Source of the DNA: a virus
Taxonomy: Duplodnaviria; Caudoviricetes
Direction: 5' to 3' (one strand)
DNA length: 64,000 nucleotides
Virus record (IMG/VR): IMGVR_UViG_3300031965_000014
Span: 6,786 to 70,785 of that record
Under the pieces are notes generated by a model. That model was not told the origin of the DNA, searched no databases, and saw only the letters and a list, made by a program, of their open reading frames with translations. Position numbers and translations under genes: made by a program. Below are positions 1 to 49,687 of this stretch, one piece after another (the first letter of the stretch is position 1; every line of letters begins with the position of its first letter).

Positions 1-3000
1 ACCACCGGCGGCTGCTTCGCCAGGTAGTCCTTCGCCTCCTGACGGAAAGCCTGCGTGTGCACGCGCTGACTGGCCTGGTGCAGGATGGCCTGCAGCGTGG
101 CGATCGCCTTGGTCTTGGGCAACTCCACGCGCATGGAGGATCCGGCCTTGACGAAGTCCGTGCCGGCGGCCTCGAGCACCTTCGGGTTGAGGTAGATGAT
201 GCCGCCCCTCTCGCGGGCGGCAGCAACCGAGATCCGGTAGAGATCCTCGCCGGGCAGCTTGGCGACGCGGAACACCTTCTCGTCCACGGATTCGACGACA
301 GGTTTCCCGTCAAGCGATTCGAGGAAGCCGATCGCCGCGGCCGCGTCCGGGAACTCGACCGGCATCTCGTTCAGTGACTTGTCGATGTCGAACTTCGCCG
401 GCATGAGGATGCCCTGGTGCGTGGCGCCGTCGTCGGTCGTGTAGTTGATGATCCGGCCGTTGGCGAACTTCCCGAAGCCGGCGAGCAGGTTCCCGGTGAC
501 GATGACGCGGTCCTCGCGGGTCACGGTCTGCGCCTCGTCGAAGAGCTGCAGGATGCGCTTGCCCTCGAACTCGGCTGGATTGAACTCGTCGATCAGCACG
601 AGGCCGGTGTCCACCGCGCTCGCCGGCGCCCGGTTGGCGGTGATGAGGCGCGAGGCCGGCAGGGTGACGTGCCGGATGGCGTCCGCCACGGCATAGGTGA
701 TCTTCCACGCCCCGAGGGCTGCCGGGTTCTTCGGCTTGCCCTTCTTCTCGATCATGGTCACCACCGCCGGGATCTTCCCGTAGCGCGTGGTGAGCACCAC
801 CGGGCGCCCGATGCCGCTCTGGGCGAGGATGGCGTCCAGGCGGGTGTGCGCCGCATCCAGGCGAGTCTGCGTCGCCTCGCGGTGACGCTGGTCGTGCAGG
901 CCGTCGAGCTCCTGCTGCAGGAAGTCCTTGAACTCGCTCTCGAGCTCATCGCGCATGGTGTTGATGCGCTGCGCGCCGAGCGCCTTCAATTCGGTCAGGC
1001 GCGCGCCTTCCTGGGCCTCAAGGGACAGGCGGATGCGCTCGACGAGTTCAACGCTTGTGTAGGGCTTGCCGAGCTTCTTGACGTCGACGATCTCGCCATT
1101 GGAGCCTTGTGCGAATGGGCTGGTGCCACCGCGGCCCTGCGTGACCGGAACGACTTTCTTCACCTTCGCTTCGAGGGGCAGGGTCTTGGCTTCGAGCGCG
1201 TTCTCGCCCATCCGGTCCTTCTCGTCGAGGAGGGCGAGATACTCGGATTCGATCAGGTCGTAGAGCGTCTCCTGCTCGGCAATCGTGAGAAGCGGGATCC
1301 TCCCGGTCAGTTTGCGGATGGCCCCCTCGCGCTCGAGCCCGGAGCCAGATTCGTCGTTCTTCAGCGGCGAGCCCATCTTGCGGTGCCAATCCGGGTTGTC
1401 CTCCATGAGCTGGGCGGTGACCTCGTCGCCGTACTCGTTCATGAAGTCCACCACGTCCTTGGATGTAACGGCGGAGCCGCGCGCTGCCGTGGTGTTCGCG
1501 TTCAGGCTCGCCATCTTCTTCGCGAGCACCGCCGCGGGCCGCTTCTCGGCCGGGATGTCGGCGACGAGCTGCGAGTAGATCGGCTCGATCACCTGGCCGG
1601 TACGGTGCACCCTCCCGAGCATCTGCATGTGGATGTCGATGTTCCTCTCCGGCTGCACGATGAACATGTGCCGCTGGCGCTGGTCCTTGAACTTCTCGGA
1701 TGCGTGCAGCGAGAGCCCGGTCGCGCCGGCTTGGTTGATGAGCAGGACGTCGAGCTTGCCGCTGTTGAAGCCCAGGATGGTCTCGTTGCGGCCGCGGATC
1801 GAGATCTCGCGCCCCGGGCGCAGTCGGTATATTGGCACGTCGCCCGTGTAGTCGATGAGGTGCTGGCGGCCGGTGATCTCCCCGAACGACAGCCCGGCCT
1901 TCACCACCTGCGCTTTCAGGTAATCGATCGGCGAGAGCGGGATGTCGGAGAAATCAGATTGAAGAATGTCCTCCTTGATGCTGTCCCATGCCTGCCTGGC
2001 GAACAGGCCGAGCTCATCGTCGGTGAGGCGATGGCGCTCCTTCTTGCCGAAGGCGTTGCCGATGGTGACGTCGCGCGAGCGCTCGAGGTAGCGCAGGAGC
2101 AGGTCGCGGAACGAGATGTCGACCGCGTCTCCCGTGTTCAGGCCGTGGTCCTCGACGTAGTGCTCGATGAACGAGCCCATGGTGTTCGCCACGGTCAGGA
2201 CCGGCTTCTCGCCGCGCTTCACCGCCTCGAGCGCCTTCTGCGCGGCTGGCACCACCTTTAGCGCGAGGAGCATCTGGTCGACCATGTTGTGCATGATCGA
2301 GGTGAAGTTGGTCGAGTGCACCCCGGCCAAGCCGATCGAGCCGTCCTGCGTCATGGTCTTCGCCTCGGCGCGCACAGTCTTTTTCAAGGCCGCGACGGCA
2401 CCTGCCTTCAACTGATCGAACTCCGCTACCCGGCGCATGATCGAGGACATGCGCTCCGCCACCTGGCGGTTGACCGGCGTGAGGATGGTGTTGTAGGTGA
2501 CTCCGGCAAAGGAACGCTCGCGCCGAATGTATTGCCCGGCCTTCGCGAGCATGGCGGCGACCACCTGCTGCAGCGGCACGCCGCCGGCGCGGATCGCCGC
2601 CGGCAGCGCCGCGGAATTCTCTACGGCGAGCCCCATGTCCGTCTTGAAATACAGGTCCATCACCTCGGGGCGCTTGGCATAGGTCGCCGAGGAGTAGAAG
2701 ACGGACTCGGCCATACGGGCGATGCCGCGCGCGAAGTCGGCGCGCGTCGGGTCGCGCTTGATGATCTCCTGCTTGGCCTGCACGTTCCCGCCGGCGTTGT
2801 GCGACTCGTCGAAGATCACCACCCCGCCGCGCGAGAACGCTTCCAGGAAGTCCATGCGCGCGGTGCGCTGGCCGCCCTTGATCGTCTGCATCTGGCTGTA
2901 CGTGGTGAAAATCACGTCGTAGTCGCCCAGCGAGCCCTTCGCGATGAGCTCCTGCAGATGGGCGTTGTGGTCCTTGCCAGACTTCGCCTTGAGGACGACC

Positions 3001-6000
3001 GACCCGTCATCGGTGAGAGGGATGGACTCGCCCGCGTTCGTCATCACCGGGGTCACGTCCGGCATGCCGATGTCCGCGAGATCCCGGTAGATGTCCTTGT
3101 AGAGGTTCGGCTTCTCGGTGACGAAGATGGGGGTCTTGCCGTTCTTCTGCGCCCAGCGGATCACGCCGGCGACGACCCTTCCTTTCCCGACTCCCGTAGC
3201 GTCGCCGATGATGTAGCCCGCGCCGCCTTTCATGGCGTCGAGCGCTTGCGCCAAGGCGTCGACCTGCTCGGCGCTGAAGTAGCGCCCGAGCTTGGCGGGC
3301 GCATAGTCGAGTTCCTTCGCCACGTACTGGTCGAGATCCCCGACCTTCTCCTTCAGCGCATTGAGCGAGCCGGCGATCGAGTCCTTCATGTTCACCGGGA
3401 CGAGCGTGCCGATCGCATCGACGCCGGACCTGGGCTCGTAGGCGGTCTGGTGCTCGGTCTCGAGTTCCTTCGGGCGCACCGGCGCGCGCGGTTGCTCTTC
3501 CTCTATCTGGATGGTTCCGGCCCGCAATTCTTCGACGAACCGCACCACGTAGGGCTTCATGCGGTTGATCGCCTCGGCCGTCATGGCGGCCTTCTCGCGC
3601 AGGTAGATCAGGAGCAGCCGGATTGCTTCGCGGATGTCCTGCCCGGCCTGCTTGAAGTGCTGGACGCCGGCGAGCAAGAAGGGCTTCGCCTTGGCGTAGG
3701 TCTCCTCGTCGAACTGCAGGCCGGAGCCGAGGCGCCCCTTGCCGCCGAAGAGCTGCTCGAGGCCCTTGGCGATGTCCTCGATGCCAGCGCCGGTCTCGCG
3801 CGCTGCGCTGGCTGCCGCCTCACCGGCGGTGCGTGGGGGTGCTTTCTCGACGTCGCCGAAGAGCTTGGCGAACTCCTCGTCGAAGATCTGGCCTACATCA
3901 GCCTGTTCACCAGCTCCTCGAGGCTGTCCGCGCTCGACACGTTCTCCGCCTTCAGCTCGCGCACCCGCAGTAGGTCCGGCAGCACCGGGTTGTCCTCGAA
4001 CAGGTCCGCCACGAACTGGTCCGGGTCCTCCAGGTCCACGCTCGACGGCAGTAGGTCCGAGGTCGCCAGGAGCGACTGGACGCGCTTCATCTCGAGCGCC
4101 GGCGCCGAGCTCGCCGCGAGCAGCGCCCTCGCCCTGTCGGCGATCTTCTGCACTTCGTGCTGCGTACCCAGCATCGAGCTTCTCCTCAAGCGCCCCCCAC
4201 GACTCGTACATGAGGGGCAGGTCCGCCGCCGGCAAGCCCTTTGCGGACTTCCCGCGGCCGCGGATCACCACCACGTCCACCGGCCAGGCGGCCCCCTGCT
4301 TCGAGTACAGGTCGCCCGCGACCGTGAAGTGGTCGACCACATTGTAGTCCCGGTACAGGGTGAAATAGAAGGCCCGCAGGTGCTTCCCGTTGTAGGCTTC
4401 GGCGCGCGTCTCCCCCTTCTTCATGTCGTGCGGCGCCGCAACAATGAGCACCGTACGGCCGTCGTCCTTCATGGCCTCGAGGGCCTTCAGGCTGATCGCG
4501 TGGTCGATCTGGGTGGTCGTGTAGCTGTCGTCGATCTTCCAACGCTTGTTGAAAAACTTGCCGCCGCTCTCGTCCTTCACGTAGCCGAAGGGCGGGTTGG
4601 CGATGACGACGTCGAAATTGCGCTTGCTCGGCCCCTGCTCCGAGGCGTCGAACGACTTCACGATCGCGAATCCCTGCGTCTTGAGCACCTCGTAGCGCTC
4701 GTCGTTCAACTCGTTGGCGGAGACCTTGGCCAGCGCTGCATCGATGAGCAGTATGCCGTTGCCGGCGGTCGGCTCGTAGACGGTCGTGTCCTTGCCGATG
4801 CCGGCGAGCCGTGAGGCGAGGAACGCGAGTGGCACCGGCGTCGAGTACGCCTGCTCTCGGATCGACGTCGAGGTGCGCACGGCGAGGTTGGGCTGTCGGT
4901 TGTAAAGCTCGACCAGCGCGGCGTAGATCTCCTTGTCGGTCGCGCCGCGCGCGCGCATCTGCGAGATCAGTTTGCGCGCGGCGAGCACCACGCCCAGCTC
5001 GATCGCTTCGTCGAGTTGCTTCGCGCGCGCAGTGCCCGCGCCCAGCTTGGCGTCTATGATCTCCGCCCCCCAGGCGCGCGCCTCGGTGATCGTCTTGAAT
5101 CCGTCGCGCTGCAGTTTTTCGGCCGCGCGCTCGGCGAGGCGCCTTACTTCCGCGCTTGGGAGAGGAGCCTCGGCCCGCGGTGCTTCCGCTTGCTCTTCCG
5201 CGGCGCGCCCTCCGGGTGGGCGCTGCTCATCGGCCTTGACGGGTGCCGGCTGTTGTAGATCGCGGCCGCCCGGCTTTTCGCCTCCTTCTCCGGTACGCCC
5301 TTCGCCTTCAACTTGTCCCTGATCGCTTCGTACTGCGCCGGCATCGGTCTTCTCCTTCTTCGCTTTGGCGGCGCCCTCGAGTTCGCTGACGCCTTCGTCT
5401 TCGGTCGGTTCCGTGTGCTTGCCCCACTGCACGATCGGCTTCGCGAGTTTGCCCTGCGAGCGCGCGAATACGTGCCAGCCGTTCTTCACGTGCATGTAGC
5501 TCTTGCCGTAGGGCTGGCGTTCCCAGCCGCGCTCCTCGAGGAATTTCTCGAAGCCGGCGATGTCGTCGTCAGGAAGTTGCGTCGCGTTGCCCTTGGCGGT
5601 GCGGCTGATCTCCGATTCGATCTCGCGGAGCAGGTCCGCATGCGTCTGCACCTCGGCGGCCGGCAGTGTCGTGTCCGCGGTCTCCAGCCACTCGTGGAAC
5701 TCACTGAGCTCCATGCGCGTCACCGCCGCAAGGCCGCGCCACCCTGGCGTGTAGTTGGCCATGTACGCGCGCCGTGCCTCTTCCTCGGAGGCGAAGCCGA
5801 TCATGACCTTGTGCTCGTCGAAGTGGCCGTTACCGGGCTTTCGTTGGTCGATCACGTAGATCGGCGCGTCGTCCGGGATCTGCTCCGGCGTTCCCGGCTT
5901 GATGAAGGCGTCGATGTGGTCCTTGTCCTTGCCCTTCGTGCCGCGGATGTAGCCGTAGTGCTGCTTCAGCACCGGCCATTCCGGGCGGCGCTTGGAGCCC

Positions 6001-8117
6001 TCCGGGTTCTCGATCGAGATGTCGAGCCCGCCGATGCGCACGTGGCCCTTCTGGTAGTTGCCGGCCTCTTTCTGCGGTTCGGTCGGTTGCGGCAGCTCGT
6101 TGGCCGGGCTCGTCGCCGCGGCGTGCGCGGCTTCGTCGACCGGCGACTCGAAGATCTGCTTCAGGCCGGCGGCCGCCTCCTCGAGGCCGCCGGGCGCCAC
6201 CGCAGGCCGAGAACCAGGAGGAGGAGGAGGTTCAGCGGGCCGTGGCGGCGCCGGCGGCTTTTCGGCTGCCTGCGGAGGCAATTGGGTAGAAATGGGCGGC
6301 TGCTCACTGATCACCTGTAGTGCTGTTTCCGCCGGTTTCTCAGCTACTTGCGGCTGAACTACTTGCAAGGCTGGCGTCTCCGCCTGCGGTATCTGGGTGG
6401 AAATCGGTGCGGCAGGCGCGGCAGTGGGCTCAGGCGGCGCGCCGAGGGCCTCAGCGGGCTCCTCGAGGCCGCGCACCGCGGACACGTCGATGTCGCGCGC
6501 GCCGGGCTCCAGCGGCACGGCAGGCCCGCCCGCGGGCGGCGCCGGCGGCACGACTTCCTCGCCGGCGATCATCCGGGAGAGCGCGGCAGGATCCTCCGTG
6601 GAGACCGGCGCTTGCGGCGGCGCAGCAGGCTGGGCCTCGGTGACCCTGCCTTGCTCTGCCGCCGCGCCCACCGTGCCGTACACCGTGCCCGCGACGGCGC
6701 CGGCGATCAGCGCCACCTTGAAGTTCTGCCACGCCTCCTGCAGCGTGATGTTCGGGTCGTAGCTCGTGTAGGCGTTGAGATCTTGAGCGAGCTGCGTGAT
6801 GCCCTCCTGCCCGGCCTCCTGCCCGATCGTGTTCGCCAGGCGCTTCAAGAACGGGCTGCCGGCCTTCAAGGCCACACGGAGCGGTATGGCCTCGCCGATC
6901 CCTTCCAAGATGCTGTCGACCAGCGCCGCGCGCCGCGCGATGTCGTGGGCAGCGCCTTTGGCCGTCGCCTCCCCGTAAGTGGCACCGGCCTGGAACGCGG
7001 ATCCTCCGCCGCCCGCGATCGCCATGGCGGCAACCGGATTGCGGGTCAGGATGCCTACCGAAATACCCATAAGAGTCGGCGGAGCGCTCTGCACGAACGA
7101 CCACACCCCCTGTTGCAGGTCGCTCATCTCGCCGACCGGCTGCACCAGCTCGAGATCCTTGCGGGTCTGCTCGGCCCACCGCTTGTAGTTCTCGCCCGCA
7201 GCGCGCGCCTGCTCGGTCATCGCGCGCAGCCGCGCCGCGCGCGCGCCGGTCGGCGCAGTCTGGCCTGGCAGCGTCTCCTCGGAGAGCGGGTCCCGGTGGC
7301 GGAGGATCTCCTGGCGCGGGCTGTAGGTCGCGGCGCGCTGCGCCGGCGACAGGCCCGTCAGGATCTCCTCCTCGGTCTGGCGAGCGGCCTCCTCGAAGCT
7401 CATTGCCCCGAGGTTCGCCACCGCGTTCTTGCCCGCGGCGACCATGCCAGCAGGGGCGTTGCTGAGCACGCCCTGCTCGCCGAACCAGTCGGCCTCGGCA
7501 GATCCCGTTTCCTGCTGAGCGCGCAGCCGCGCAGGCATCGCTGCGGGCGGCGGCGCGACGGTCTCGGCTTGGGGCGGCGCCGGCGCCGGCACGGCAGCCT
7601 CCCCAGAGATGTCCGGGAGGTCGGTCGGCGCGCGCCGCGCATCGAGCGACTGGCTCACCGCCTCGCCTGCCGCACTCACCAGCGCGCCGGCGCGGCGCAT
7701 GAGCGAGGGCTTCGTGCGCTCGTCGAACTCCTTGCGGGCCTGCTCGAGCTCTGGCGTGGGCACGCGCGGCGAGACGACGTCCCGCCAGAACGACATGCGC
7801 ACCGACTCCTGGCCGGCGCCGTCGAGCGCTTGGTACTTGGGCGAGGCTTCGACCTGCGACCACTTCGGGATCTGCTCCGGTGCAGGCTGCACGCCGATCG
7901 GCTTCCCGGTCGCCGCGATCTCGCGATCGAGAGAAGCCTGGTGCTCAGGAGCGGTCGCCTCGGAGCGCTCGCCGTTCAGGATCTCAAGGCGCCGGCGCGC
8001 GGCCGCCTCGCGCTCCTCCGGCGACTCGCGCGGGAAGTCCGCAGGCGTAGCCACGGACGACAAGCGCCGCGGCTTCGGGACCGGCGGCTCGACCTCGAGC
8101 GGGATGATCTCGGCCAT
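1..8117 (-). CDS. Giant DarB-like polyvalent (ejected internal virion) protein, >=2705 aa, runs off the left edge: InPase domain, N6-adenine DNA methyltransferase, Strawberry-notch-type SF2 helicase
   Basis: Absent from the ORF track, consistent with having no stop inside the window. ATG at 8117 directly follows the upstream TAG, and the same frame is coding at position 5. Hand translation of sampled segments gives GNYQKGH..ENPEGS..HYGYI..DEHKV (InPase, ~5700-6070), YEPTAGNG and VIANPPFG (MTase motifs I/IV, ~4580-4800), GDATGVGKGR and FDESH (~2790-3220), and QMLGRVHRTGQ (~1590-1625). Confidence 0.88.
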   Translation of the reverse strand, partial: MAEIIPLEVEPPVPKPRRLSSVATPADFPRESPEEREAAARRRLEILNGERSEATAPEHQASLDREIAATGKPIGVQPAPEQIPKWSQVEASPKYQALDGAGQESVRMSFWRDVVSPRVPTPELEQARKEFDERTKPSLMRRAGALVSAAGEAVSQSLDARRAPTDLPDISGEAAVPAPAPPQAETVAPPPAAMPARLRAQQETGSAEADWFGEQGVLSNAPAGMVAAGKNAVANLGAMSFEEAARQTEEEILTGLSPAQRAATYSPRQEILRHRDPLSEETLPGQTAPTGARAARLRAMTEQARAAGENYKRWAEQTRKDLELVQPVGEMSDLQQGVWSFVQSAPPTLMGISVGILTRNPVAAMAIAGGGGSAFQAGATYGEATAKGAAHDIARRAALVDSILEGIGEAIPLRVALKAGSPFLKRLANTIGQEAGQEGITQLAQDLNAYTSYDPNITLQEAWQNFKVALIAGAVAGTVYGTVGAAAEQGRVTEAQPAAPPQAPVSTEDPAALSRMIAGEEVVPPAPPAGGPAVPLEPGARDIDVSAVRGLEEPAEALGAPPEPTAAPAAPISTQIPQAETPALQVVQPQVAEKPAETALQVISEQPPISTQLPPQAAEKPPAPPRPAEPPPPPGSRPAVAPGGLEEAAAGLKQIFESPVDEAAHAAATSPANELPQPTEPQKEAGNYQKGHVRIGGLDISIENPEGSKRRPEWPVLKQHYGYIRGTKGKDKDHIDAFIKPGTPEQIPDDAPIYVIDQRKPGNGHFDEHKVMIGFASEEEARRAYMANYTPGWRGLAAVTRMELSEFHEWLETADTTLPAAEVQTHADLLREIESEISRTAKGNATQLPDDDIAGFEKFLEERGWERQPYGKSYMHVKNGWHVFARSQGKLAKPIVQWGKHTEPTEDEGVSELEGAAKAKKEKTDAGAVRSDQGQVEGEGRTGEGGEKPGGRDLQQPAPVKADEQRPPGGRAAEEQAEAPRAEAPLPSAEVRRLAERAAEKLQRDGFKTITEARAWGAEIIDAKLGAGTARAKQLDEAIELGVVLAARKLISQMRARGATDKEIYAALVELYNRQPNLAVRTSTSIREQAYSTPVPLAFLASRLAGIGKDTTVYEPTAGNGILLIDAALAKVSANELNDERYEVLKTQGFAIVKSFDASEQGPSKRNFDVVIANPPFGYVKDESGGKFFNKRWKIDDSYTTTQIDHAISLKALEAMKDDGRTVLIVAAPHDMKKGETRAEAYNGKHLRAFYFTLYRDYNVVDHFTVAGDLYSKQGAAWPVDVVVIRGRGKSAKGLPAADLPLMYESWGALEEKLDAGYAARSAEDRRQGEGAARGELGAGARDEARPVAPGDLGPTAVERGPGGPGPVRGGPVRGQPGAAGPTAGARAEGGERVERGQPRGAGEQADVGQIFDEEFAKLFGDVEKAPPRTAGEAAASAARETGAGIEDIAKGLEQLFGGKGRLGSGLQFDEETYAKAKPFLLAGVQHFKQAGQDIREAIRLLLIYLREKAAMTAEAINRMKPYVVRFVEELRAGTIQIEEEQPRAPVRPKELETEHQTAYEPRSGVDAIGTLVPVNMKDSIAGSLNALKEKVGDLDQYVAKELDYAPAKLGRYFSAEQVDALAQALDAMKGGAGYIIGDATGVGKGRVVAGVIRWAQKNGKTPIFVTEKPNLYKDIYRDLADIGMPDVTPVMTNAGESIPLTDDGSVVLKAKSGKDHNAHLQELIAKGSLGDYDVIFTTYSQMQTIKGGQRTARMDFLEAFSRGGVVIFDESHNAGGNVQAKQEIIKRDPTRADFARGIARMAESVFYSSATYAKRPEVMDLYFKTDMGLAVENSAALPAAIRAGGVPLQQVVAAMLAKAGQYIRRERSFAGVTYNTILTPVNRQVAERMSSIMRRVAEFDQLKAGAVAALKKTVRAEAKTMTQDGSIGLAGVHSTNFTSIMHNMVDQMLLALKVVPAAQKALEAVKRGEKPVLTVANTMGSFIEHYVEDHGLNTGDAVDISFRDLLLRYLERSRDVTIGNAFGKKERHRLTDDELGLFARQAWDSIKEDILQSDFSDIPLSPIDYLKAQVVKAGLSFGEITGRQHLIDYTGDVPIYRLRPGREISIRGRNETILGFNSGKLDVLLINQAGATGLSLHASEKFKDQRQRHMFIVQPERNIDIHMQMLGRVHRTGQVIEPIYSQLVADIPAEKRPAAVLAKKMASLNANTTAARGSAVTSKDVVDFMNEYGDEVTAQLMEDNPDWHRKMGSPLKNDESGSGLEREGAIRKLTGRIPLLTIAEQETLYDLIESEYLALLDEKDRMGENALEAKTLPLEAKVKKVVPVTQGRGGTSPFAQGSNGEIVDVKKLGKPYTSVELVERIRLSLEAQEGARLTELKALGAQRINTMRDELESEFKDFLQQELDGLHDQRHREATQTRLDAAHTRLDAILAQSGIGRPVVLTTRYGKIPAVVTMIEKKGKPKNPAALGAWKITYAVADAIRHVTLPASRLITANRAPASAVDTGLVLIDEFNPAEFEGKRILQLFDEAQTVTREDRVIVTGNLLAGFGKFANGRIINYTTDDGATHQGILMPAKFDIDKSLNEMPVEFPDAAAAIGFLESLDGKPVVESVDEKVFRVAKLPGEDLYRISVAAARERGGIIYLNPKVLEAAGTDFVKAGSSMRVELPKTKAIATLQAILHQASQRVHTQAFRQEAKDYLAKQPPV
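3893..4174 (-). CDS. Nested overprinted 93-aa protein (MLGTQHEVQKIADRARALL...EELVNRLM) inside the giant gene, alternative frame
   Basis: GAGGAG SD 7 nt before the ATG at 4174. Nearly all third codon positions are G/C in this frame, while the host frame becomes low-complexity G/R/P/A. Confidence 0.75.
   Translation of the reverse strand: MLGTQHEVQKIADRARALLAASSAPALEMKRVQSLLATSDLLPSSVDLEDPDQFVADLFEDNPVLPDLLRVRELKAENVSSADSLEELVNRLM
5144..5344 (-). CDS. Nested overprinted 66-aa basic protein (MPAQYEAIRDKLKAKG...) inside the giant gene, alternative frame
   Basis: AAGGAG SD 7 nt before the ATG. GC3-rich codons in this frame; the host frame here is a low-complexity linker. Confidence 0.75.
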   Translation of the reverse strand: MPAQYEAIRDKLKAKGVPEKEAKSRAAAIYNSRHPSRPMSSAHPEGAPRKSKRKHRGPRLLSQARK

Positions 8118-10851: not shown

Positions 10852-11150
10852 GAGCCCACCTGTTCACCGCGAAGCTGCGCCACGAGATAGTTGTATGCCG
10901 TGGTCAGGTTCTCGAGGTCCTCGACGGCCTTGTCGAATTCCGCTTTTGTCGGTGGATCGACTGCGGCCACGGCAGATTGCTGCTCGACATCGGCCACGCG
11001 CATATCACCGAACTTCACCGCCTGCGAGAGTTTGTCGATGCCACGCAACCCGGCGAGCGAATCGAGGTTCTGCTTGATCGCCTGCAGGATAGGGGTCAAC
11101 CCATGCGGCAAGCCGCTCGGGATCTCCGGGATCTGGGCAAAGCGGCTCAT
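10848..11150 (-). CDS. Hypothetical virion protein
   Basis: 100 aa, coupled by overlap to both neighbours. Confidence 0.6.
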   Translation of the reverse strand: MSRFAQIPEIPSGLPHGLTPILQAIKQNLDSLAGLRGIDKLSQAVKFGDMRVADVEQQSAVAAVDPPTKAEFDKAVEDLENLTTAYNYLVAQLRGEQVGS

Positions 11151-13198
11151 ACGCGCTCCAGGGATTTGACCGTCTCGCCGAGCACCACACGATGGACGAC
11201 GACGTTACCAGCGAGCCCTATCTCGACCGTATCCACCTTGTAGCCGTCTTTCAAACGAAACGGCTTCTTGAGGTTCGTGATGTTCCTGCTGAAGCGGAGC
11301 TTGCGGTCTGCAAACAGCGTGAAGGTCAATTGCTGCAGGCCAGCGGTCGACGGCGCCGTCTGCAGCAAACTCCCATTCAAGACCATCTCATTGAGAACGA
11401 CGCTGTGCATGTCGCCATTCGTCTCCCCGGCCGGGATCGCGCTATTCGCGGCGATGATCGAAGCGGCGAGCGCCTCGATCTCCGCTACCTCGCCCGCGCT
11501 CAGGTCGAACTCCGCATCGACCTTCGCCGCGCCGTAGTTGGCTGGCTTTGGCAACACGATCACCTTGGAGCGGTAGTCCATGATGAGACGGATGGCCATA
11601 TCCGCGTCCCACTGTTTGATCTCGTTGCCGTGCAGAACGTAGAGATCTCCGGTCCGCTTGTCGTAATACCCGCCCACGATCGGGATGTTGGAGGTGGCAA
11701 GGCCGCCAATGTTGTTCTCGCGATCGAGGAGGAACGTACCGCCGACATCATTCCCATCGTCATCCTGGCCGGAAGTGAACGCACCGAAGTAGCGATCGGC
11801 GAACTGAAACGCGCGTAGCGTGGACGGGAAGATCGCCGCCCAAGTGTCGCGATCATGGTAGGGGACAGTCGCAACGGTCGTGCCGCCTTCGCTCACCATC
11901 ACGAGGCCCTCGGCCGACGGATAGAACACTGCGTATCCGAGGCTCACCATGCCGCGCTTCGAGAGGCACGGATGATTGATCTTGGTCAGTTTGTTCTCGG
12001 CCATCGTGGCTGGGTGCGACCCGGAATAGACGACCGGGTTGCCATTGGTGCCGATCACGAGGCTCGCGCCCACGACGCCAGTCCCGACACCTGAAAACGG
12101 CATCGTGCGGCGATACTTCTCTGGCCAGGCGTGCGTGAAATAGGGCTCGCTGAAACACACTTCGTTGCTCGAGACCCCGGCGAGGATGCCGTTGCCCATG
12201 TCGACGATGGCCTTCATATCGATAGGCGGCATGTCCCAATCGAGGCTGGGAATCGCCTCGTTCAGCGCAACCGCTGCATCGGTCTCGGTGTCGGCGTAGG
12301 TCGTATCCACCTCATCTATTTCGGCGACGAAGCGATAAAACGCTCCGGCGTTGCCGATGACGGTGCGGTAGATCCGCTTCTTGAGAACGTCGTGGTTCGT
12401 CTTCGCGGTGATGGTCCCGGTCGCAGGCGAGGCCGGCGTGCCGCTCACCGTGTAGCTGAACTGCGTATCGGAGATCCGCGTGATCTCGAACGTGCCGTTG
12501 TATTCGGTCTCGACTGCTCCTGCGATGATGACGCGGTCTTTGTCGGTAAACCAGTTCACATAGCCGGCCGGAATCGTCACCGTCGCTACTGCCCCTACCC
12601 GGGTGATCGACGAGACCGGCACCACCCAGCGCGGGATACTGGTGAGATTGATCGTCTCCCCGGACATCGCGGAGATGATGGCCGAAGGCGTGGACGGCGC
12701 GCTCTCGTCAGTCTTGCCGCTCGCCCAGGCGTGGACGAAAGTCACAAGGTAGACGCGATCGCGCGCCGTGCCGGATCCTCCGCCGCCAGAAGCCAGGCTC
12801 GGTGCGGTGATCGGCGCAGGCACGCCCAGGCGCCACCAGTCCGTGGGCTTCGGAGTCCCGCCAGTGGCGAGTGTGAAATCGGTGGTCTTCGGCGAGCCGT
12901 AGCCGGTGAAGCAAATCCGCTGCGTGATGTCGCCGGCGATCAGGGACTCGACCACGTCTACGTCCTCGACCCATTCCAGCCACACGAGGGCCCCACCGCT
13001 GTCGCGCATCGGGTAGATCGACTGCACCGTGCCGCTCTTCGCCAGGCCGGATGCCGTCTTCATCCCAAACCACGGTTTCAGCTTCCCGTCGAAGAGCTTG
13101 CAGTTGAACGCCTGCTGCGCGTACCCGGCCGGCAGCAGGCGAGGGCTGAACTTCGGCGCCTCGCCGCGGAAGAAGTCCAGGACGATCGGGTCGGCCAT
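11147..13198 (-). CDS. Tail nozzle / DNA-stabilisation-like protein (683 aa)
   Basis: True start is MADPIVLDFFRGEAP at 13198 (TGATG overlap with the upstream gene). Beta-rich; contains CFSEPY..HAWP; position fits a podovirus tail gene. Confidence 0.7.
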   Translation of the reverse strand: MADPIVLDFFRGEAPKFSPRLLPAGYAQQAFNCKLFDGKLKPWFGMKTASGLAKSGTVQSIYPMRDSGGALVWLEWVEDVDVVESLIAGDITQRICFTGYGSPKTTDFTLATGGTPKPTDWWRLGVPAPITAPSLASGGGGSGTARDRVYLVTFVHAWASGKTDESAPSTPSAIISAMSGETINLTSIPRWVVPVSSITRVGAVATVTIPAGYVNWFTDKDRVIIAGAVETEYNGTFEITRISDTQFSYTVSGTPASPATGTITAKTNHDVLKKRIYRTVIGNAGAFYRFVAEIDEVDTTYADTETDAAVALNEAIPSLDWDMPPIDMKAIVDMGNGILAGVSSNEVCFSEPYFTHAWPEKYRRTMPFSGVGTGVVGASLVIGTNGNPVVYSGSHPATMAENKLTKINHPCLSKRGMVSLGYAVFYPSAEGLVMVSEGGTTVATVPYHDRDTWAAIFPSTLRAFQFADRYFGAFTSGQDDDGNDVGGTFLLDRENNIGGLATSNIPIVGGYYDKRTGDLYVLHGNEIKQWDADMAIRLIMDYRSKVIVLPKPANYGAAKVDAEFDLSAGEVAEIEALAASIIAANSAIPAGETNGDMHSVVLNEMVLNGSLLQTAPSTAGLQQLTFTLFADRKLRFSRNITNLKKPFRLKDGYKVDTVEIGLAGNVVVHRVVLGETVKSLERV

Positions 13199-13425
13199 CA
13201 GGGTGCCAGCGCCTTCAATTCCGCTGCCAGGGCGATCGTGCGCTCCGCATCCGCGATCCTGTTGTCCAACATCTTCTTCATCGCCGCCGGGATGTCTTCG
13301 GGCGCCGTGACCTCGATCAAGGGGGCGAGCTCGGTGTCGATGATGTTGGTGCGGTGGGCATTGAGGATGGTGTACTGCACCGCCCCGCGAACGATTTCCA
13401 GAATGAGGGCTTTCTCGAGGCTCAT
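13198..13425 (-). CDS. Hypothetical protein (75 aa)
   Basis: Coupled at both ends; normal codon usage. Confidence 0.6.
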   Translation of the reverse strand: MSLEKALILEIVRGAVQYTILNAHRTNIIDTELAPLIEVTAPEDIPAAMKKMLDNRIADAERTIALAAELKALAP

Positions 13426-13820
13426 GGCTTGGCTTTCCTTTCGCTCTCTGCCAGCTCGTTCTCGAGCAGGTTGAGTAGCAGTTCAACCGCTTTGGCTTGA
13501 TTCTCGGCCTTGGCGATGTCGCCCAGGTCGAGCGCCGTCTGCGCCTTGGCGATGGCGTCCCTGTGCTCCTTCACCTTGATCAGCTTCAGCGCGGCCTCCT
13601 TGGGTGTGATGACGTCGCGATTCATCTTCGACACGATGTCGTCCACCATGGCCAAGGCGAGCAGCGTCGCCTCATTGATGACGTTCTGCACTTGCTGGGC
13701 TGGCGCCGAGAGCTGCTTGGAGACCGGGATCTCGGCTGGCTTGGGCTGCATGATGCCGCAGCCGCCCAGCGCCATGCTTGCGCACAGCGCCAGGGCGGTA
13801 AGTAGTTTGGAGGCTTTCAT
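13422..13820 (-). CDS. Lipoprotein in the lysis cassette (spanin-like role possible)
   Basis: MKASKLLTALALCASMALGGC lipobox, followed by amphipathic helices. Confidence 0.7.
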   Translation of the reverse strand: MKASKLLTALALCASMALGGCGIMQPKPAEIPVSKQLSAPAQQVQNVINEATLLALAMVDDIVSKMNRDVITPKEAALKLIKVKEHRDAIAKAQTALDLGDIAKAENQAKAVELLLNLLENELAESERKAKP

Positions 13821-31416: not shown

Positions 31417-33777
31417 TCACTTCTTCGTGTTGGCGGGCGACGTGACTTTTTTCTCGAGCTTGTCGATGCGCTTGCCGACTTTCTCCTCGATACCCTTCAG
31501 CGCCTTTTCGATCTTTTCGTTCATGCCGGCGACTGCCTCGGCCTTCTGGCGCTCCATGCTGGCGATCGCGATCTTCGCGCCGGCATCCAGGCGGGCCCGG
31601 TACTCGTCGGTTCCAGCACGGGTGTCGGCCTCGTGGATCTTCGATTTCATGGCGGCCTGCAGGGAGTCGATCTTCGCCTGCAGCTTGCGCACCTCTTCCT
31701 GCGCCTCTTCGATGACCTGCTGGACCTGCTTTTGCACCTCGGCGAGGGCATCGGGCGAGATCTCGCCCTCGCCCTCCTGGCCCATGGTGTCGATCTCGCG
31801 CTGCAACTTCTCGCCCTCGAGCTCGGCGTTTCGGACTTCGGCCTCTTCGGCGCGGCGCATGAGCTCGGCCTTCCTCTGCTGCTCGGCCTTCTCGCCCTCC
31901 TGCTTGGCGGCCTCCTCCTTGTTGCGCGGCTTGTGGGAGCCCTGCAGGCCCAAGTGCTGTCGGATGCGCTCGCCGATCTGGCGCCGTTGCGGCAGGTCCG
32001 TCGCCTCGATGATGAAGTCCGAGATCAGGGCCTTCATCTCGTCGGGCAGGCCCTTGGTGAACTCGGTGAGGTGCGCGAGCTGCCCGGCGCGGAAGGTCGG
32101 GGTCGAGGGCACGTCGTCCAGGACAAGCGAGACGCCGGCGCGGATCACGTCGTTCTTGACGTAGGCGCCGAACTCGTCGGTTGCGTCCTCGTTCAGCGTC
32201 ACCTCGTGGCGCTGCATGCCCTCTCCCACCGTGACGGTGGTGCCGTTGGCGATGTCCTCGCGCACGTTCTCCATCAGGATGGCGCCCACCTGGCGCCGCG
32301 CGTAGCGGAAGTTGTCGTTGATCTCGGCGAGGGTCGTCGTGCCCTGCTCGATGAGAGAGTTGATGGCGATGCCGGACTCGGCCTTCGACTCTTTTCCGAG
32401 AAGCGCCTGGTAGACGCCGGCGACGTCCTGCAGGGATTGCTTCGCGTTCTCGTAGATCTTGAACTGCTGGTCCGAGAGCTGCAGGTTGTCCTGGATCTCG
32501 AACTTCGATGTTGGCTTTCTGTGGGCGTTGAGGACGATGTAGGCATCCGCCCGCGCGACCTCGCGCCGTACCTCCTCGTGATCGAGCACTGCATCGTGGT
32601 CGACGACGACCTGCTTGGAGGAGAGCAGCCACATCATCTTTTGCTTGCGGGCGTTGATCTCGTCTTGCTGGTCGCGCATGTTGCGGATGAGCCCGTAGGG
32701 CGCGCTCGAGCGGTCCTCCCGGTAGCCGAAGAACGGCACGTAGGGGAAGAAGTGGTGCTTGTAGGGGCTGGGCACGTCGATCAGGCGGTGCGGACCGATC
32801 CAGAACGACAGGCGCACCTTCGGCACCGGAAGAATCTGCGGCACGATCAACCCTTGCGCCACCGCGGCGACGTGCAGGCGGTTTTTCCGGTCGTATTCCA
32901 CCCAGCGCCCGTCCGGGAGGTGCAGCATCGGCAGCGCCTTCCAGGTGCGATACCAGATCTCGTAGACGCAAAGACGTTTGCGCAGGTAGTCGCGGAACTC
33001 GTATTCCTCGATCGCGGTCGCGCGCTCGACGTCCCAGGCGGCGGCGAGGCCCGTGTCGCTCGAGCGCATCACGTCGTCCCACCAGCCAGACCACTGGTTT
33101 CCGATCATCTCGATCAGCTTTTCGTGGCGCGGGAACATGGCTTTCACTACGTCCTCGTCGAACCACTGCCGGCGAACTAGGTAGCGCCAGTCGGAGGTGT
33201 CGGGTTCCTTGCCGCGCCAGTCCCATGCGATCTCTCGCCGGTGCACGTAGCGCACGCGGTACGGATAGCGGTACGGGACGATCTCGCGCGAGACTTCGAC
33301 CCACCCGAGGCCCACCTTGATCTGGGGCGCGTAGGCGTCGGAACAGGCTTTGTCGGCGTGGCCCTCGCGCTCGGCTTCCTTCATCTTCACCGACATCGCC
33401 TGGGCGACTTCCTCCCACTGGTCGTTGTCGTGCTTGACGATCCAGTCGGTGCGCGTTTTTGCCTCGAGCCCGAGCACCGCGTCGATCGTCGGGCGGCAGA
33501 GGTTCTCCTTGATGGCCGGGAAACCCTTCAGGCGCAGCTTTTCGAGGATGTCGGCGGTGAGCTGGTGCCCGTCGTAGTAGTCGGCGTCGATGTCGCACTG
33601 CCGGCGCCAATCTGGTTGCTCGCGGATCTCCTGCAGCCAGGTTTCCAGCGTCTCGAGTTTGAGGGCTTCCTTGTCGGGCGTGGCGTAGTCGTGGCCGTGC
33701 GAGGTTGAATCGACCGGGCGCGCCGGCACGCGCATTCGCGCGAGCTGGCTTTTCAGCGGTATGACCTGGGCGGCCAT
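31417..33777 (-). CDS. Portal protein (P22-like)
   Basis: 786 aa; DADYYDGHQL..EN..PTIDAVLG.E..FPYVPF..YGLIRNMRD.Q.EIN; C-terminal coiled coil; follows terL. Confidence 0.9.
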   Translation of the reverse strand: MAAQVIPLKSQLARMRVPARPVDSTSHGHDYATPDKEALKLETLETWLQEIREQPDWRRQCDIDADYYDGHQLTADILEKLRLKGFPAIKENLCRPTIDAVLGLEAKTRTDWIVKHDNDQWEEVAQAMSVKMKEAEREGHADKACSDAYAPQIKVGLGWVEVSREIVPYRYPYRVRYVHRREIAWDWRGKEPDTSDWRYLVRRQWFDEDVVKAMFPRHEKLIEMIGNQWSGWWDDVMRSSDTGLAAAWDVERATAIEEYEFRDYLRKRLCVYEIWYRTWKALPMLHLPDGRWVEYDRKNRLHVAAVAQGLIVPQILPVPKVRLSFWIGPHRLIDVPSPYKHHFFPYVPFFGYREDRSSAPYGLIRNMRDQQDEINARKQKMMWLLSSKQVVVDHDAVLDHEEVRREVARADAYIVLNAHRKPTSKFEIQDNLQLSDQQFKIYENAKQSLQDVAGVYQALLGKESKAESGIAINSLIEQGTTTLAEINDNFRYARRQVGAILMENVREDIANGTTVTVGEGMQRHEVTLNEDATDEFGAYVKNDVIRAGVSLVLDDVPSTPTFRAGQLAHLTEFTKGLPDEMKALISDFIIEATDLPQRRQIGERIRQHLGLQGSHKPRNKEEAAKQEGEKAEQQRKAELMRRAEEAEVRNAELEGEKLQREIDTMGQEGEGEISPDALAEVQKQVQQVIEEAQEEVRKLQAKIDSLQAAMKSKIHEADTRAGTDEYRARLDAGAKIAIASMERQKAEAVAGMNEKIEKALKGIEEKVGKRIDKLEKKVTSPANTKK

Positions 33778-35316
33778 TTACATCCCCGTGCGCCAGTCAT
33801 CGGGATCGGGCGGCGGGCGCGTGATGCCGCGGCGCTGCGGAACCTGGAAGCGGTGCGCGAAGGTGAGCGCCGCTCCCCAGAATCCATCGGGGGATTTCAA
33901 TCCCCTCTTTTTCATGTGCTTCGAGGACTCGACGATGATGCGCATGCTCGAATCCTTGCTAACGGTCGGGCCGGTGAGATCCTGCTGTAGCTCGTTGGAA
34001 TCGGCGATGCGGTTCGGCTTGTCGTCGAACCACAGCTTCATGTCGAAGGCCATTTCGTCGCGGCGGCCCTTGTAGAGCGCTTCCTCGAAGGCTTTTTCGC
34101 CGAAGTGCACGCGAATTACCGGCAGGCCCAGCTCGAGCAGGCGATCGGCTGGCCCTGTACCGACGCCGGTCACGTCGACCATGAGCGCCATGGGCTTCGG
34201 TTCGGGCTCCTTGTCGTACTCGACGGCGACTTTGCCGACGAGGTCCATGGGGCCGACCTTCGCCCAATACTTCGAGTCGTAGATCACGCGGCCCTGGCGC
34301 CTGCAGAGGTTCGAGCGATCGTCGCCGTACTCGGCGACGTCCAGGCCCCACAGTTTCGGCGCGTTCGGGTCCGGCGTGATCTTGGAGTTGCGGGCGGCCG
34401 CCACCAGGATCGGCTTGATGAGCGTGTCCGGGCTCGAGGAGAGGAAGGCGTGCTCGGGCGTGGCCGGATATTCCTGGTCGAACTGCTGGATGTCGCCCTG
34501 AAAGTCGTCGCGGATTTTCAGGCGCCGGAAATACATCTGCTCGGCGTCGAGGTTTAAGGCTTCGGCGTACTCGATCTCGTCGGCGTCGAGCACGAAGTCC
34601 GCGGGCGGCGTACGGCGGTACTCTGTGGACCAGAACCAAGGCGTGAAGATGGGGATGTAATCGCCCTCGCCCGCGGTCGCGATCTGCCAGCCCTCGTGAA
34701 ACGGATTGCCGATGCCGAATGCGGTCGATTCATAGATGATCTCGGTGTCGTCCTCGTTCGGGACGGTCTGGCCGATGCCGGCGAGGTGGTCCTTGGCGTT
34801 GGGCCAAAAAGCCATTTCGGAGCCGTGAAAGAGCTGCACGGTGGCCGAGCGCCCGGCGCCCTTGGTGCCGGCAGTCGCGACGAGGTAGCCCGAGTCCAGG
34901 CGATCGAAGTAGAGCTCCTTGGCGGAAGCGTTGCCGGCGTGGGGCTTCAATTCCTGTGGCAGCTTCTCGTAGTAGCGGTTGACGATCTCGAACAGGTTGT
35001 CGGTCGCCTGCTGCTCGTGGGTGAGGATGGCGGCGCGCAGTCCGAAGCCGGTGACGGTCTTGCGGAAGTGCCGTGAGGTGATGTAGGTGGATGCCCCCTG
35101 CTGGCGTCCTTTCAACCAGTAGGCGCGCACGCGGCCGATGCGCGCGCGCTGGTCCTCGAGCATGCGGTGGCCGAAGAGCTGAGGGGCGTTGAGCTTGAGC
35201 GGGATGATCTTGCCGTTCTTCACCCTGATCTGCATGCAGCGCTCGGCGTACTTGGCGTGGTCGGCGAGGACCTCGTCGAAGATTTCGTGATCGGTGCGCA
35301 GGGCCAGGGATGCCAT
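33778..35316 (-). CDS. terL: Terminase large subunit
   Basis: LKGRQQGAST Walker A, FHGSEMAFW Walker B, YESTA motif, GLDVA nuclease motif. Confidence 0.92.
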   Translation of the reverse strand: MASLALRTDHEIFDEVLADHAKYAERCMQIRVKNGKIIPLKLNAPQLFGHRMLEDQRARIGRVRAYWLKGRQQGASTYITSRHFRKTVTGFGLRAAILTHEQQATDNLFEIVNRYYEKLPQELKPHAGNASAKELYFDRLDSGYLVATAGTKGAGRSATVQLFHGSEMAFWPNAKDHLAGIGQTVPNEDDTEIIYESTAFGIGNPFHEGWQIATAGEGDYIPIFTPWFWSTEYRRTPPADFVLDADEIEYAEALNLDAEQMYFRRLKIRDDFQGDIQQFDQEYPATPEHAFLSSSPDTLIKPILVAAARNSKITPDPNAPKLWGLDVAEYGDDRSNLCRRQGRVIYDSKYWAKVGPMDLVGKVAVEYDKEPEPKPMALMVDVTGVGTGPADRLLELGLPVIRVHFGEKAFEEALYKGRRDEMAFDMKLWFDDKPNRIADSNELQQDLTGPTVSKDSSMRIIVESSKHMKKRGLKSPDGFWGAALTFAHRFQVPQRRGITRPPPDPDDWRTGM

Positions 35317-47928: not shown

Positions 47929-48434
47929 TCTTCGCTTTCAGCACCAGCGGCGCGCGCGTACTCGCGCGGGAGCATCCCGTCCAAGCCGTGGCGCTGCGCC
48001 CAATCCAGCACCACCGGCGGCGAGATCGCGCCCATGCCCTCGCCGCCCAACTGGCGCGCGAGCGACAGGCCCCACGGCGACTGCCCGGTCGAGCCCTTGC
48101 TGCCGTCGGCCTTGCCGATCGCGCGCTGCACCGCCGGCGCGTTGAAGAAACCGTGCTGGTAGAGGATCTGCGCCTGGTCCGAGTACGGCTTCTCGGGCGT
48201 CGGGCCTTTCTTTCGCAGGCTCGCTCCGTCGGCGTCCTTCAGCATGTGCAACGTGACCAGCACCTCGCAGTCGTGGTAGCGGCTCGAGCCGAGCATCAGG
48301 GCGAGGTCCGAGTCGGGCGATTCCGAAGGAACGAAGAACTCGATAACGTTGCCTGAGACAAGCAGTTTCGGCTTCCTGATGTAGGCTCTGAGCGCACCGA
48401 CGAGTTCGTAGGCGGCAAGCTCGGCCTCATCCAT
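47925..48434 (-). CDS. Hypothetical protein (GFFNAP.V..AIG type)
   Basis: 169 aa, coupled. Confidence 0.55.
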   Translation of the reverse strand: MDEAELAAYELVGALRAYIRKPKLLVSGNVIEFFVPSESPDSDLALMLGSSRYHDCEVLVTLHMLKDADGASLRKKGPTPEKPYSDQAQILYQHGFFNAPAVQRAIGKADGSKGSTGQSPWGLSLARQLGGEGMGAISPPVVLDWAQRHGLDGMLPREYARAAGAESEE

Positions 48435-49317
48435 CGAAGAACTCCGCCTGCGCGCGGCCGCGCTTCATCGCCTCGACGGCCGCCTTGTTCAACCACACGA
48501 CTTCGGTGCGCCACTGTCCCGCGTCGGCCATCGCCTCGCGCTCGTGGCGCTGCCAATCCGGGTAGAGCTCGAGGTCGTAGAGCTCGCAGCCGTAGCCCGA
48601 GAGCACCACCATGCCCTTCACGCAGTGGAGCACTTCGGCCAGGCCACGGTGATCGTCGTCCAGCATGTCGCAGGCGTAGGCGCGCTCGACGTCGCCGGCG
48701 CAGCGGATCGACGAGCGCGTGCTCTGCGGATACGGCGGGTCAACGTAGAACAGGGTCTCGTCGGAATCCTGCTGCAGGATGACCTCGAGCGCCGGGCGGT
48801 GCTCGATCGTCACGCCGCGCAGCCGCTCGATGAAGGACTCGACCTGCGCCGGCCAGGCGGTCCAGTCCTGGGCGCCGGTCTGGTTGCGCCGGTACGCCTT
48901 CGCCCGAAAGCCGGACCGGCCGATACGCCTGGACGTCGACCCGTAGGCCATGTAGCCGCGCGCGATCGTGCGCCGCGCCTGCTCGACCGGGTCGTCCGAG
49001 GGCTCGTAGGCGAGCATGAATTCGTCCCGCGCCCACGGCGTGAGGTAGCACAGCTCCGCCAGGCGCCGCGCGCGCACCGGGTCGCGGAGGATCCGAAAAA
49101 TATTTACGACCTCTCCATCAAGGTCGTTAATCACTTCCGCGAAGCTCTTTGGCTTACGCATCAGCACGGAGGCCGCCCCGCAATACGGTTCGACATATAT
49201 GCGGTGCTCTCCGAAAAAACTGATGATCCACGGGGCAAGACGAAATTTGCCTCCATGAAATCTCAGCACCGGCCGCCGCGGCGGCGGTGGGGCGCATTCG
49301 GCGGCCTCCACGGTCAT
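48427..49317 (-). CDS. dam: DNA adenine methyltransferase (Dam/D12 class, 296 aa)
   Basis: RFHGGK..YVEPYCGAASV..NDLD..FYVDPPY; true start MTVEAAE at 49317. Confidence 0.9.
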   Translation of the reverse strand: MTVEAAECAPPPPRRPVLRFHGGKFRLAPWIISFFGEHRIYVEPYCGAASVLMRKPKSFAEVINDLDGEVVNIFRILRDPVRARRLAELCYLTPWARDEFMLAYEPSDDPVEQARRTIARGYMAYGSTSRRIGRSGFRAKAYRRNQTGAQDWTAWPAQVESFIERLRGVTIEHRPALEVILQQDSDETLFYVDPPYPQSTRSSIRCAGDVERAYACDMLDDDHRGLAEVLHCVKGMVVLSGYGCELYDLELYPDWQRHEREAMADAGQWRTEVVWLNKAAVEAMKRGRAQAEFFDG

Positions 49318-49502
49318 CGCTGGCGCGCCTCCGCCTTGAGCTTCATCACCCTCCTGAGAAGCTGCTTGTTGTCGCTCTCGAGGTAGGCGTTGCGGCGCTT
49401 GAGCGCGTCGTGCGCGGCGCGCAGGCGCTCGACGTACTCGGTGGTCAGCGACACCGCTTCCGGGGCGATGGCGCGCGCCAGGCGCTCGCGCAGGCCGCTC
49501 AC
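49314..49502 (-). CDS. Small coiled-coil protein
   Basis: Coupled at both ends. Confidence 0.55.
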   Translation of the reverse strand: MSGLRERLARAIAPEAVSLTTEYVERLRAAHDALKRRNAYLESDNKQLLRRVMKLKAEARQR

Positions 49503-49687
49503 GATGGCACCATGCAGCGCTTGAGATCGTCGGCTGGCTCGCGCGCCTCAATGACGCGACCATCGAACAGGTGCACGATCGAGCGCACGCCATGCCATTG
49601 AGAGGACGGGCCCGCCTCGGTGATGGTGGCGATCGCGGCATCGTTGACGTGCACCTTGCGGCCGTCGATCTCGGTCACTGTGATCAT
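49499..49687 (-). CDS. FlbD-like small protein (62 aa)
   Basis: MITVTEIDG....VN...I..I.E; TGATG overlap with the replication gene. Confidence 0.5.
   Translation of the reverse strand: MITVTEIDGRKVHVNDAAIATITEAGPSSQWHGVRSIVHLFDGRVIEAREPADDLKRCMVPS

Follow-up and report, generated by a model that had tools for sequence, protein, structure and literature searches.

The locus described here raises the question of whether a 66-codon open reading frame (ORF) that is buried, out of frame, within a giant phage gene is a gene in its own right. The DNA analyzed, hereinafter the window, is a 64-kb stretch of the 70.8-kb IMG/VR record IMGVR_UViG_3300031965_000014 (a tailed phage of the class Caudoviricetes, estimated to be 95% complete). 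On the minus strand of the window, the small ORF (5344..5144; 66 codons plus the stop codon) starts with an ATG at 5344 and ends with a TAA at 5146-5144. It is wholly contained in another minus-strand ORF (8117..3), which begins with an ATG at 8117, runs off the start of the window and encodes a giant polyvalent virion-type protein of more than 2705 amino acids (aa). The small ORF is in the +1 frame relative to this host gene, (8117-5344) mod 3 = 1, and is flanked by 924 host codons upstream and 1713 downstream. The evidence presented below indicates that this ORF represents, very probably, a genuine gene, which belongs to a conserved, undescribed family of small phage proteins with the N-terminal signature MPxQYEAIRD. 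It is likely that it functions as an independently translated small gene whose nesting within giant genes is recurrent and selected.

The nested reading frame and its start signals

The nested start codon, which is the earliest start codon of its open frame, is formed by the host codons GAT-GCC (Asp925-Ala926) and is preceded, with a 7-nucleotide (nt) spacer, by the Shine-Dalgarno (SD) motif AAGGAG (5357..5352, minus strand), which is itself written within host codons and is kept in the closest relative (loci L004/L021). The predicted product contains 9 lysines, 9 arginines and 3 histidines against 5 acidic residues, with an isoelectric point (pI) of 11.3, and the G+C content at the third codon positions (GC3) of the nested frame is 0.92. 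The first-pass annotation, made from the sequence alone, had reported a strongly Lys/Arg-rich 66-aa ORF at 5144-5344 with GC3-rich codons, an ATG embedded in a host GAT-GC (Asp-Ala) pair and AAGGAG 7 nt upstream, and the sequence bears out this description in each respect. The high GC3 of the nested frame is, however, partly confounded, given that the G/A/P/E-rich host linker forces a high G+C content at the first codon positions. The informative composition signal is the drop of the host-frame GC3 to 0.54 over the nested ORF, compared to 0.87 +/- 0.12 gene-wide, rather than the high nested GC3.

By themselves, the ORF and its SD motif are within chance expectation. The host gene has a G+C content of 65-70%, alternative-frame ORFs of at least 50 codons are common in it, and 49% of 200 synonymous-codon shuffles of the host gene gave one or more ATG ORFs of at least 66 codons in an alternative frame with an SD motif in front. 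Significance rests, accordingly, on homology and comparative data, and it is these data that make a chance ORF in GC-rich DNA an extremely unlikely explanation. As detailed in the following sections, the product has numerous relatives aligned from Met1, and selection is frame-specific. The possibility that these relatives are mis-called frames of one conserved host domain is excluded by the existence of stand-alone copies of the gene in AT-rich DNA. Other alternative-frame ORFs of the giant gene (e.g., 7642..7400 and 949..758) were considered as candidate genes and rejected, being Arg/Pro/Ser-rich and either lacking a counterpart or containing stops in L004, or else kept there only as a shadow of the host frame.

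A family of small phage proteins

Among 1.84 billion representative proteins, a phmmer search with the 66-aa product as the query identifies 85 matches with E-values of 1e-3 or lower (best E-value 4e-14), nearly all of which are 44-130 aa long and aligned from residue 1. A second database yields 21 further matches, all of them unnamed or annotated as "hypothetical" and without Pfam domains, and 189 relatives are found in IMG/VR. The alignment of 83 sequences gives the consensus MPxQYEAIRDxL...G...AK..AAAIYN..HP..PV followed by a basic tail, with a length of 45-75 aa. P2, Y5 and A26 are invariant in this alignment, and M1, R9, D10, G16, A22, A27, N31 and P38 are present in at least 90% of the members; the 66-aa protein carries all eleven of these residues. 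Its exact sequence is absent from a collection of 15 billion proteins and, therefore, has never been reported by gene callers. The literature searched describes neither this family nor any genes nested within polyvalent proteins.

The alignment of the relatives from the first residue also bears on the possibility that the nested frame is entered from the host frame by programmed +1 frameshifting, in which case the nested sequence would form the alternative C-terminus of a truncated InPase-containing product and there would be no separate small protein. The alternative frame is open over 113 codons, starting 47 codons 5' of the nested ATG, and SD-like motifs within genes can, in general, stimulate frameshifting. 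Nevertheless, the stand-alone members of the family begin at the same methionine and have their own SD motifs, and the alternative-frame stretch upstream of the ATG is not protein-like; no conserved slippery site was noticed on reading the sequence, although no formal scan was made. Frameshifting is, therefore, very unlikely to account for the nested frame.

Two groups of proteins resemble the family at its N-terminus. DUF7218 (PF23855), which comprises small proteins of unknown function with a similar N-terminal motif, gives weak hidden Markov model (HMM) matches for 16 of the 83 family members; in the ESM Atlas, a DUF7218 cluster is the closest one that bears a Pfam domain (score 0.80). Membership in DUF7218 was rejected: the 66-aa protein has no match at an E-value of 1 or lower, and the best E-value within the family, 0.0064, is too weak. 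DUF7218 thus appears to be a distant relative at most. In PHROG 32268 (the Thermus phage phiYS40-type protein of 361 aa, function unknown), the first approximately 45 residues match the family from Met1, with an E-value of 0.01 for the 66-aa protein and 2e-7 for the member encoded in L054; there, however, the conserved region is the N-terminus of a protein of about 360 aa that is not nested, as opposed to a free protein of 45-75 aa. The same N-terminal module is found in proteins of 108-363 aa, those of the PHROG 32268 type among them, in several viral loci (L054:4001-4525, L087:4001-5017, L102:4001-4327 and L002:1501-2589), the C-terminal parts of which show no known family. A tblastn search against GenBank phages and PLSDB plasmids produces weak matches only, namely in-frame stretches of T7-like internal virion proteins, which look like chance similarity, and the phiYS40 N-terminus. 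A pattern scan of GTDB genomes turned up no prophage copy.

Selection acts on the nested frame

The closest relative of the locus, L004/L021, is 82% identical in the methyltransferase (MTase) region of the host gene; the SD motif, the ATG and the nested ORF are all kept, and the indels are multiples of three. In this comparison, which rests on one close relative only, the ratio of nonsynonymous to synonymous substitution rates (dN/dS) is 0.32 for the nested frame, 1.17 for the host frame and 1.21 for the third frame. The nested genes differ by an AGC->TCG serine switch and by runs of third-position changes in the nested frame.

The contrast between the frames extends to more distant comparisons. 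When the first 33 codons of 21 nested copies are compared pairwise (210 pairs), the small frame has an amino acid identity of 0.55, against 0.36 for the host frame and 0.38 for the third. Within clades that consist of nested copies only, 18 of 18 pairs show the highest conservation in the small frame, even where the G+C contents are as far apart as 0.37 and 0.64 (difference 0.27). These observations indicate that, in the nested state, the amino acid constraint sits in the small frame, and that the host frame has only to stay open. The locus, then, combines a complete ORF inside another gene, on the same strand and in another frame, with its own start signals that are kept in relatives and with purifying selection acting on the embedded frame. 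The comparative data thus support the proposal of the first-pass annotation that the linker of a polyvalent protein harbors a second, real coding frame equipped with translation signals of its own.

Recurrent nesting in giant phage genes

In a census of the family, a member was located by HMM search in 100 viral loci, which yielded 76 distinct ATG-start copies; the loci are the best-scoring 80 of the 189 IMG/VR relatives plus 20 seed-matched ones, so that the proportions of nested and stand-alone copies may be biased. Copies were classified as nested when fully inside a same-strand ORF of at least 150 codons, and as deeply nested when flanked by at least 100 host codons on each side. By this definition, in 30 nested copies the host frame is offset by +2 from the small gene, i.e., the small gene is in the +1 frame relative to the host, as it is here, and in two copies the host frame is offset by +1; for the deeply nested copies, the numbers are 25 and 0, respectively. 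The shortest host of a nested copy has 733 codons and the longest more than 2699; the G+C content of the loci ranges from 0.37 to 0.67. The remaining copies of the family stand alone. The host flanks are mostly unalignable between loci, and a few of them match PHROGs of internal virion proteins or virion RNA polymerases.

The start signals are also retained in the nested state: 18 of 21 nested starts are preceded, at a distance of 5-17 nt, by GGAG or GAGG, compared to 9% of the other +1-frame ATGs in the same host ORFs. Conversely, the frame corresponding to the host contains about 6 stops in the AT-rich stand-alone copies and none in the AT-rich nested copies (L022, L033, L040 and L100); it is therefore selection, and not composition, that keeps the host frame open. 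The presence of TAC at Tyr5 in 21 of 21 nested copies was not used as evidence, because nested copies are defined by an open host frame and the argument would be circular.

Recurrence also bears on the view that the giant ORF results from an error of assembly or annotation and, in reality, consists of several genes with small genes between them. The host-frame linker does resemble junk and evolves neutrally, as this view would predict. However, there is no host stop for more than 2705 codons, Pfam domains are found in one frame on both sides of the nested gene, and the same continuous arrangement is seen on 25 contigs with distinct small-gene sequences, among them contigs with a G+C content of 0.37-0.45, where 50-66 stop-free codons are not expected. 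An artefact is, accordingly, highly unlikely. The idea, put forward in the first-pass annotation, that placing small genes in the linkers of polyvalent proteins is a recurrent arrangement is corroborated by the 25 distinct deeply nested copies with one offset and by a second ORF with the signatures of an overlapping gene in the same giant gene (see below).

In the tree of the small proteins, which is poorly resolved, well-supported branches force at least 4 changes between the nested and stand-alone states. Three closely related loci with a G+C content of 0.38-0.41 provide a snapshot of the transition between the free and nested states: the small gene stands alone in L025, is overlapped by 29 nt in L024 and is fully covered by a C-terminally extended upstream ORF of 150 aa in L022.

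A module junction and the direction of evolution

The host protein combines several unrelated enzymatic domains in one polypeptide, as is characteristic of polyvalent, DarB-like proteins, and matches a DarB-like PHROG (E-value 2e-47). Upstream of the nested gene lies an InPase domain (aa 681-812; 5682..6077, minus strand; PF18823, E-value 1e-46), and downstream of it are an N6-adenine MTase core (approximately aa 1085-1233; 4419..4865, minus strand; N6_Mtase/Eco57I) and a Strawberry-notch/SNF2-type helicase (approximately aa 1617-2253; 1359..3269, minus strand; AAA_34, E-value 3e-25; ResIII; Helicase_C_4, E-value 5e-23). The part of the host that is read across the nested gene, codons 925-992 (5142..5345, minus strand), is a G/E/A/P/R/Q-rich linker which is open, with unconstrained amino acids.

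Comparison with 10 other giant MTase-helicase genes (from loci L005-L019) shows that their homology to the host starts at host aa 973-1007, i.e., just past the nested stop or within the last 20 nested codons (the nested gene ends at host aa 992), and that their upstream parts are unrelated. The region around 5100-5200 thus marks a module or recombination boundary within the polyvalent protein. On the other side, the upstream InPase module is shared with L041, L043, L069, L081 and L093, in each of which it is followed by the nested gene. Taken together, the sharing on the InPase side and the start of homology on the MTase side place the nested gene, as an accessory element, at a module junction. 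In L089 (L089:210-3980), the small gene comes after a protein of 1256 aa whose homologs are the host parts downstream of the nested copies in L075 and L103, so that the order of the small gene and the module is not fixed.

The position of the gene at a junction, the existence of stand-alone copies and the repeated changes of the nesting state would all be expected if the nested copy were a relic, that is, a free gene swallowed when its neighbors fused, which is no longer translated and persists only because the fusion is recent. Such a relic is not expected to show what is found here: the small frame is still the best conserved one within the nested-only clades, the SD motif is kept in the great majority of the nested copies, the ATG is kept in those examined, and the dN/dS relative to the closest relative is well below 1. 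An untranslated relic is, therefore, a rather improbable interpretation, and the functional small gene is the one adopted here.

The first-pass annotation had further described this gene as "overprinted", i.e., as a new gene born within an existing linker, and in this respect it is not supported. De novo overprinting would leave a nested frame of more recent origin and narrower distribution than the host frame. What is found is a family that is widespread as stand-alone genes in many unrelated contexts and whose frame is conserved, and a host stretch that is no better conserved than the third frame and evolves like untranslated sequence. The small family is, therefore, probably older than the host linker, and the host-linker reading looks like the younger of the two; of the first interpretation, the real coding frame and the recurrent nesting in linkers are supported, and the origin by overprinting is probably wrong.

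The neighborhoods of the stand-alone copies suggest how nesting might arise. At these loci, the upstream ORF often ends 8-32 nt into the small gene, in the same frame as the nested host, at TGA codons created by TAT-GAR or CGT-GAY. An existing small gene might have been engulfed when flanking genes fused by stop loss, or fused genes might have been split by regaining stops; such a history of engulfment or splitting is the most economical one. A BLASTP comparison detects few links between the neighbors of the stand-alone copies and the two halves of the nested hosts. It can be further speculated that the small gene serves as a hinge, at which changes that are synonymous in the small gene (TAT<->TAC at Tyr5, CGT<->AGG at Arg9) would toggle host-frame stops and thus split or fuse the flanking modules with the small protein left intact, whereas the small protein itself would be made from the giant mRNA and act with the modules of the giant protein, e.g., as a co-packaged DNA-binding partner. 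This scenario is doubtful; if true, it would imply that genes hidden in the linkers of polyvalent proteins are a general class that is systematically missed by annotation.

Presumed expression of the nested gene and points to the contrary

No sigma-70-like promoter and no terminator were found in the region 4900-5900, and the product would therefore arise by internal initiation on the mRNA of the giant gene, a route known from other phage genes that are embedded in larger ones. Ribosomes would start at the AAGGAG-N7-ATG signal and yield a 66-aa basic protein, and the host frame would only have to stay open, encoding a sequence-tolerant linker at the junction between the InPase and MTase-helicase modules. 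The nested gene is presumably translated in vivo.

Several observations weigh against a functional nested gene. Apart from the chance frequency of SD-led ORFs, the single close relative behind the pairwise dN/dS and the possible bias of the census, all mentioned above, a subgroup of 8 members shows a weaker contrast between the frames, with a ratio of nonsynonymous to synonymous polymorphism (pN/pS) of 0.66 versus 1.05, which is partly due to saturation and variable tails. GenBank phages contain no relative at an E-value of 0.01 or lower, and no cultured carrier was found. Searches of Pfam and PHROG detect no informative relative of the 66-aa protein, which counts against the reading as far as function is concerned. 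Finally, L004 apart, none of the 15 MTase-helicase loci has the family in the fetched flanks, and five whole MTase-helicase records, three of which are 100% complete, lack it throughout. Given that three complete phages share the MTase-helicase module without the small gene, this module does not depend on the small gene, which is accessory. 

Predicted structure and function

The AlphaFold2 (AF2) model, based on an 83-row alignment, predicts a helical hairpin for nested codons 3-33 (5246..5338, minus strand), with helices at residues 3-14 and 19-33; this hairpin is the conserved family core. Blocks of 10 residues that cover residues 1-30 have average predicted local distance difference test (pLDDT) values of 92-96. 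Codons 36-66 (5147..5239, minus strand) encode the HP..P motif and a basic tail that is predicted to be disordered (10 of 31 residues are Lys or Arg, pI 12; pLDDT of the tail blocks about 58-72). In the nested copies, the tails consist of 29% Lys and Arg and 8% Asp and Glu. The predicted two-helix hairpin with its basic disordered tail agrees with membership in the family. Neither a Foldseek search with the AF2 model nor a sequence-profile search of the PDB detects anything significant for the 66-aa protein, a two-helix hairpin being too simple for fold matching.

The genomic context offers some clues, in that stand-alone copies adjoin genes for the large terminase, portal, DNA polymerase and methyltransferase. 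Composition and neighborhood together suggest, tentatively, that the protein might be a nucleic-acid-binding accessory component of the head or packaging module. Alternatively, it could be a partner of the giant-protein modules, or a small early or counter-defence factor. The more specific suggestion of the first-pass annotation, a DNA-condensing internal capsid protein or a role in loading or ejection of the giant protein, is compatible with the basic tail and the head-module neighborhoods.

A probable second nested gene and the setting of the host gene

The giant gene contains another nested ORF in the +1 frame, located in the linker between the MTase and the helicase (4174..3893, minus strand), which encodes an acidic protein of 93 aa. 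It is probably the first nested gene with which the first-pass annotation had compared the 66-codon gene, and its design is indeed alike: the frame offset is the same, the ATG is made by the host codons GAT-GCT, and GAGGAG lies 7 nt upstream. The host-frame GC3 over this ORF is 0.36. In comparison with L004, the amino acid identity is 95%, the synonymous rate dS is 0.067 against 0.37 in the neighboring MTase, and the dN/dS values are 0.47 for the nested frame and 1.43 for the host frame. Relatives are three proteins of 93-95 aa called in other metagenomes. This ORF, too, is probably a real gene, with far fewer relatives than the 66-aa family.

A GC3 frame scan of the giant gene revealed no candidate beyond these two ORFs. 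A dip in the host GC3 at 6434..6132 was examined as a possible nested gene and ruled out, both alternative frames holding stops. The dip itself (6132-6434, minus strand, approximately host aa 560-660; GC3 0.55-0.66) falls in a P/Q/A/E-rich linker and is a compositional oddity, possibly repeat-like.

The host gene closes a structural operon that includes genes for the large terminase (33778-35316), the portal (31417-33777) and an internal virion protein (11147-13486). Judging by gene position alone, the host product is a putative virion protein that would be packaged and injected. Elsewhere in the window (48427-50676, minus strand), a separate stand-alone DNA methyltransferase (404 aa) adjoins a replication-initiator/DnaD-like gene (329 aa), so that the phage encodes a second MTase besides that of the giant protein.

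Comparison with known systems

Apart from a few textbook cases, tailed phages provide few fully embedded, out-of-frame genes that are backed by solid comparative evidence, and such genes are discarded by gene callers. The nesting of one family, with an unchanged offset, in 25 or more distinct giant genes over a wide range of G+C content represents a natural replicated system for the study of how dual coding is maintained, how large polyvalent and ejected proteins are assembled from modules and which small proteins accompany them. It also demonstrates that conserved genes can be concealed in linkers of giant phage proteins that look like junk, which is relevant to annotating viral dark matter and to the search for factors of counter-defence or packaging.

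The closest parallel is the Rz/Rz1 spanin pair of phage lambda, in which one gene is embedded in the other and which, in related phages, can be embedded, overlapped or separated. In both cases, a small gene lies wholly within a larger one, on the same strand, in the +1 frame and with its own ribosome-binding site. The differences are that Rz1 is a secreted lipoprotein that pairs with the product of its host gene, whereas the protein described here is a cytoplasmic-type basic hairpin protein, and that the host is a giant multidomain virion protein in which the overlap falls on an unconstrained linker and not on a functional domain.

The host protein itself resembles the P1 DarB-like polyvalent proteins (Iyer et al. 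2017, PMC5512222), which likewise combine InPase, N6-MTase and SNF2/Sbno helicase domains in one polypeptide encoded among virion genes. The words "overlapping" and "linker" are absent, by term search, from that article and, therefore, linker-nested genes do not belong to the polyvalent picture as described there. Small viruses provide the classical examples of overprinted genes, e.g., B, E and K of phiX174 (PMC8227390), in which, as here, two proteins are encoded in different frames of one stretch of DNA. In the phiX174-type cases, however, the newcomer is the nested frame, whereas in the giant phage gene the nested family is old and the host reading is the apparent newcomer.

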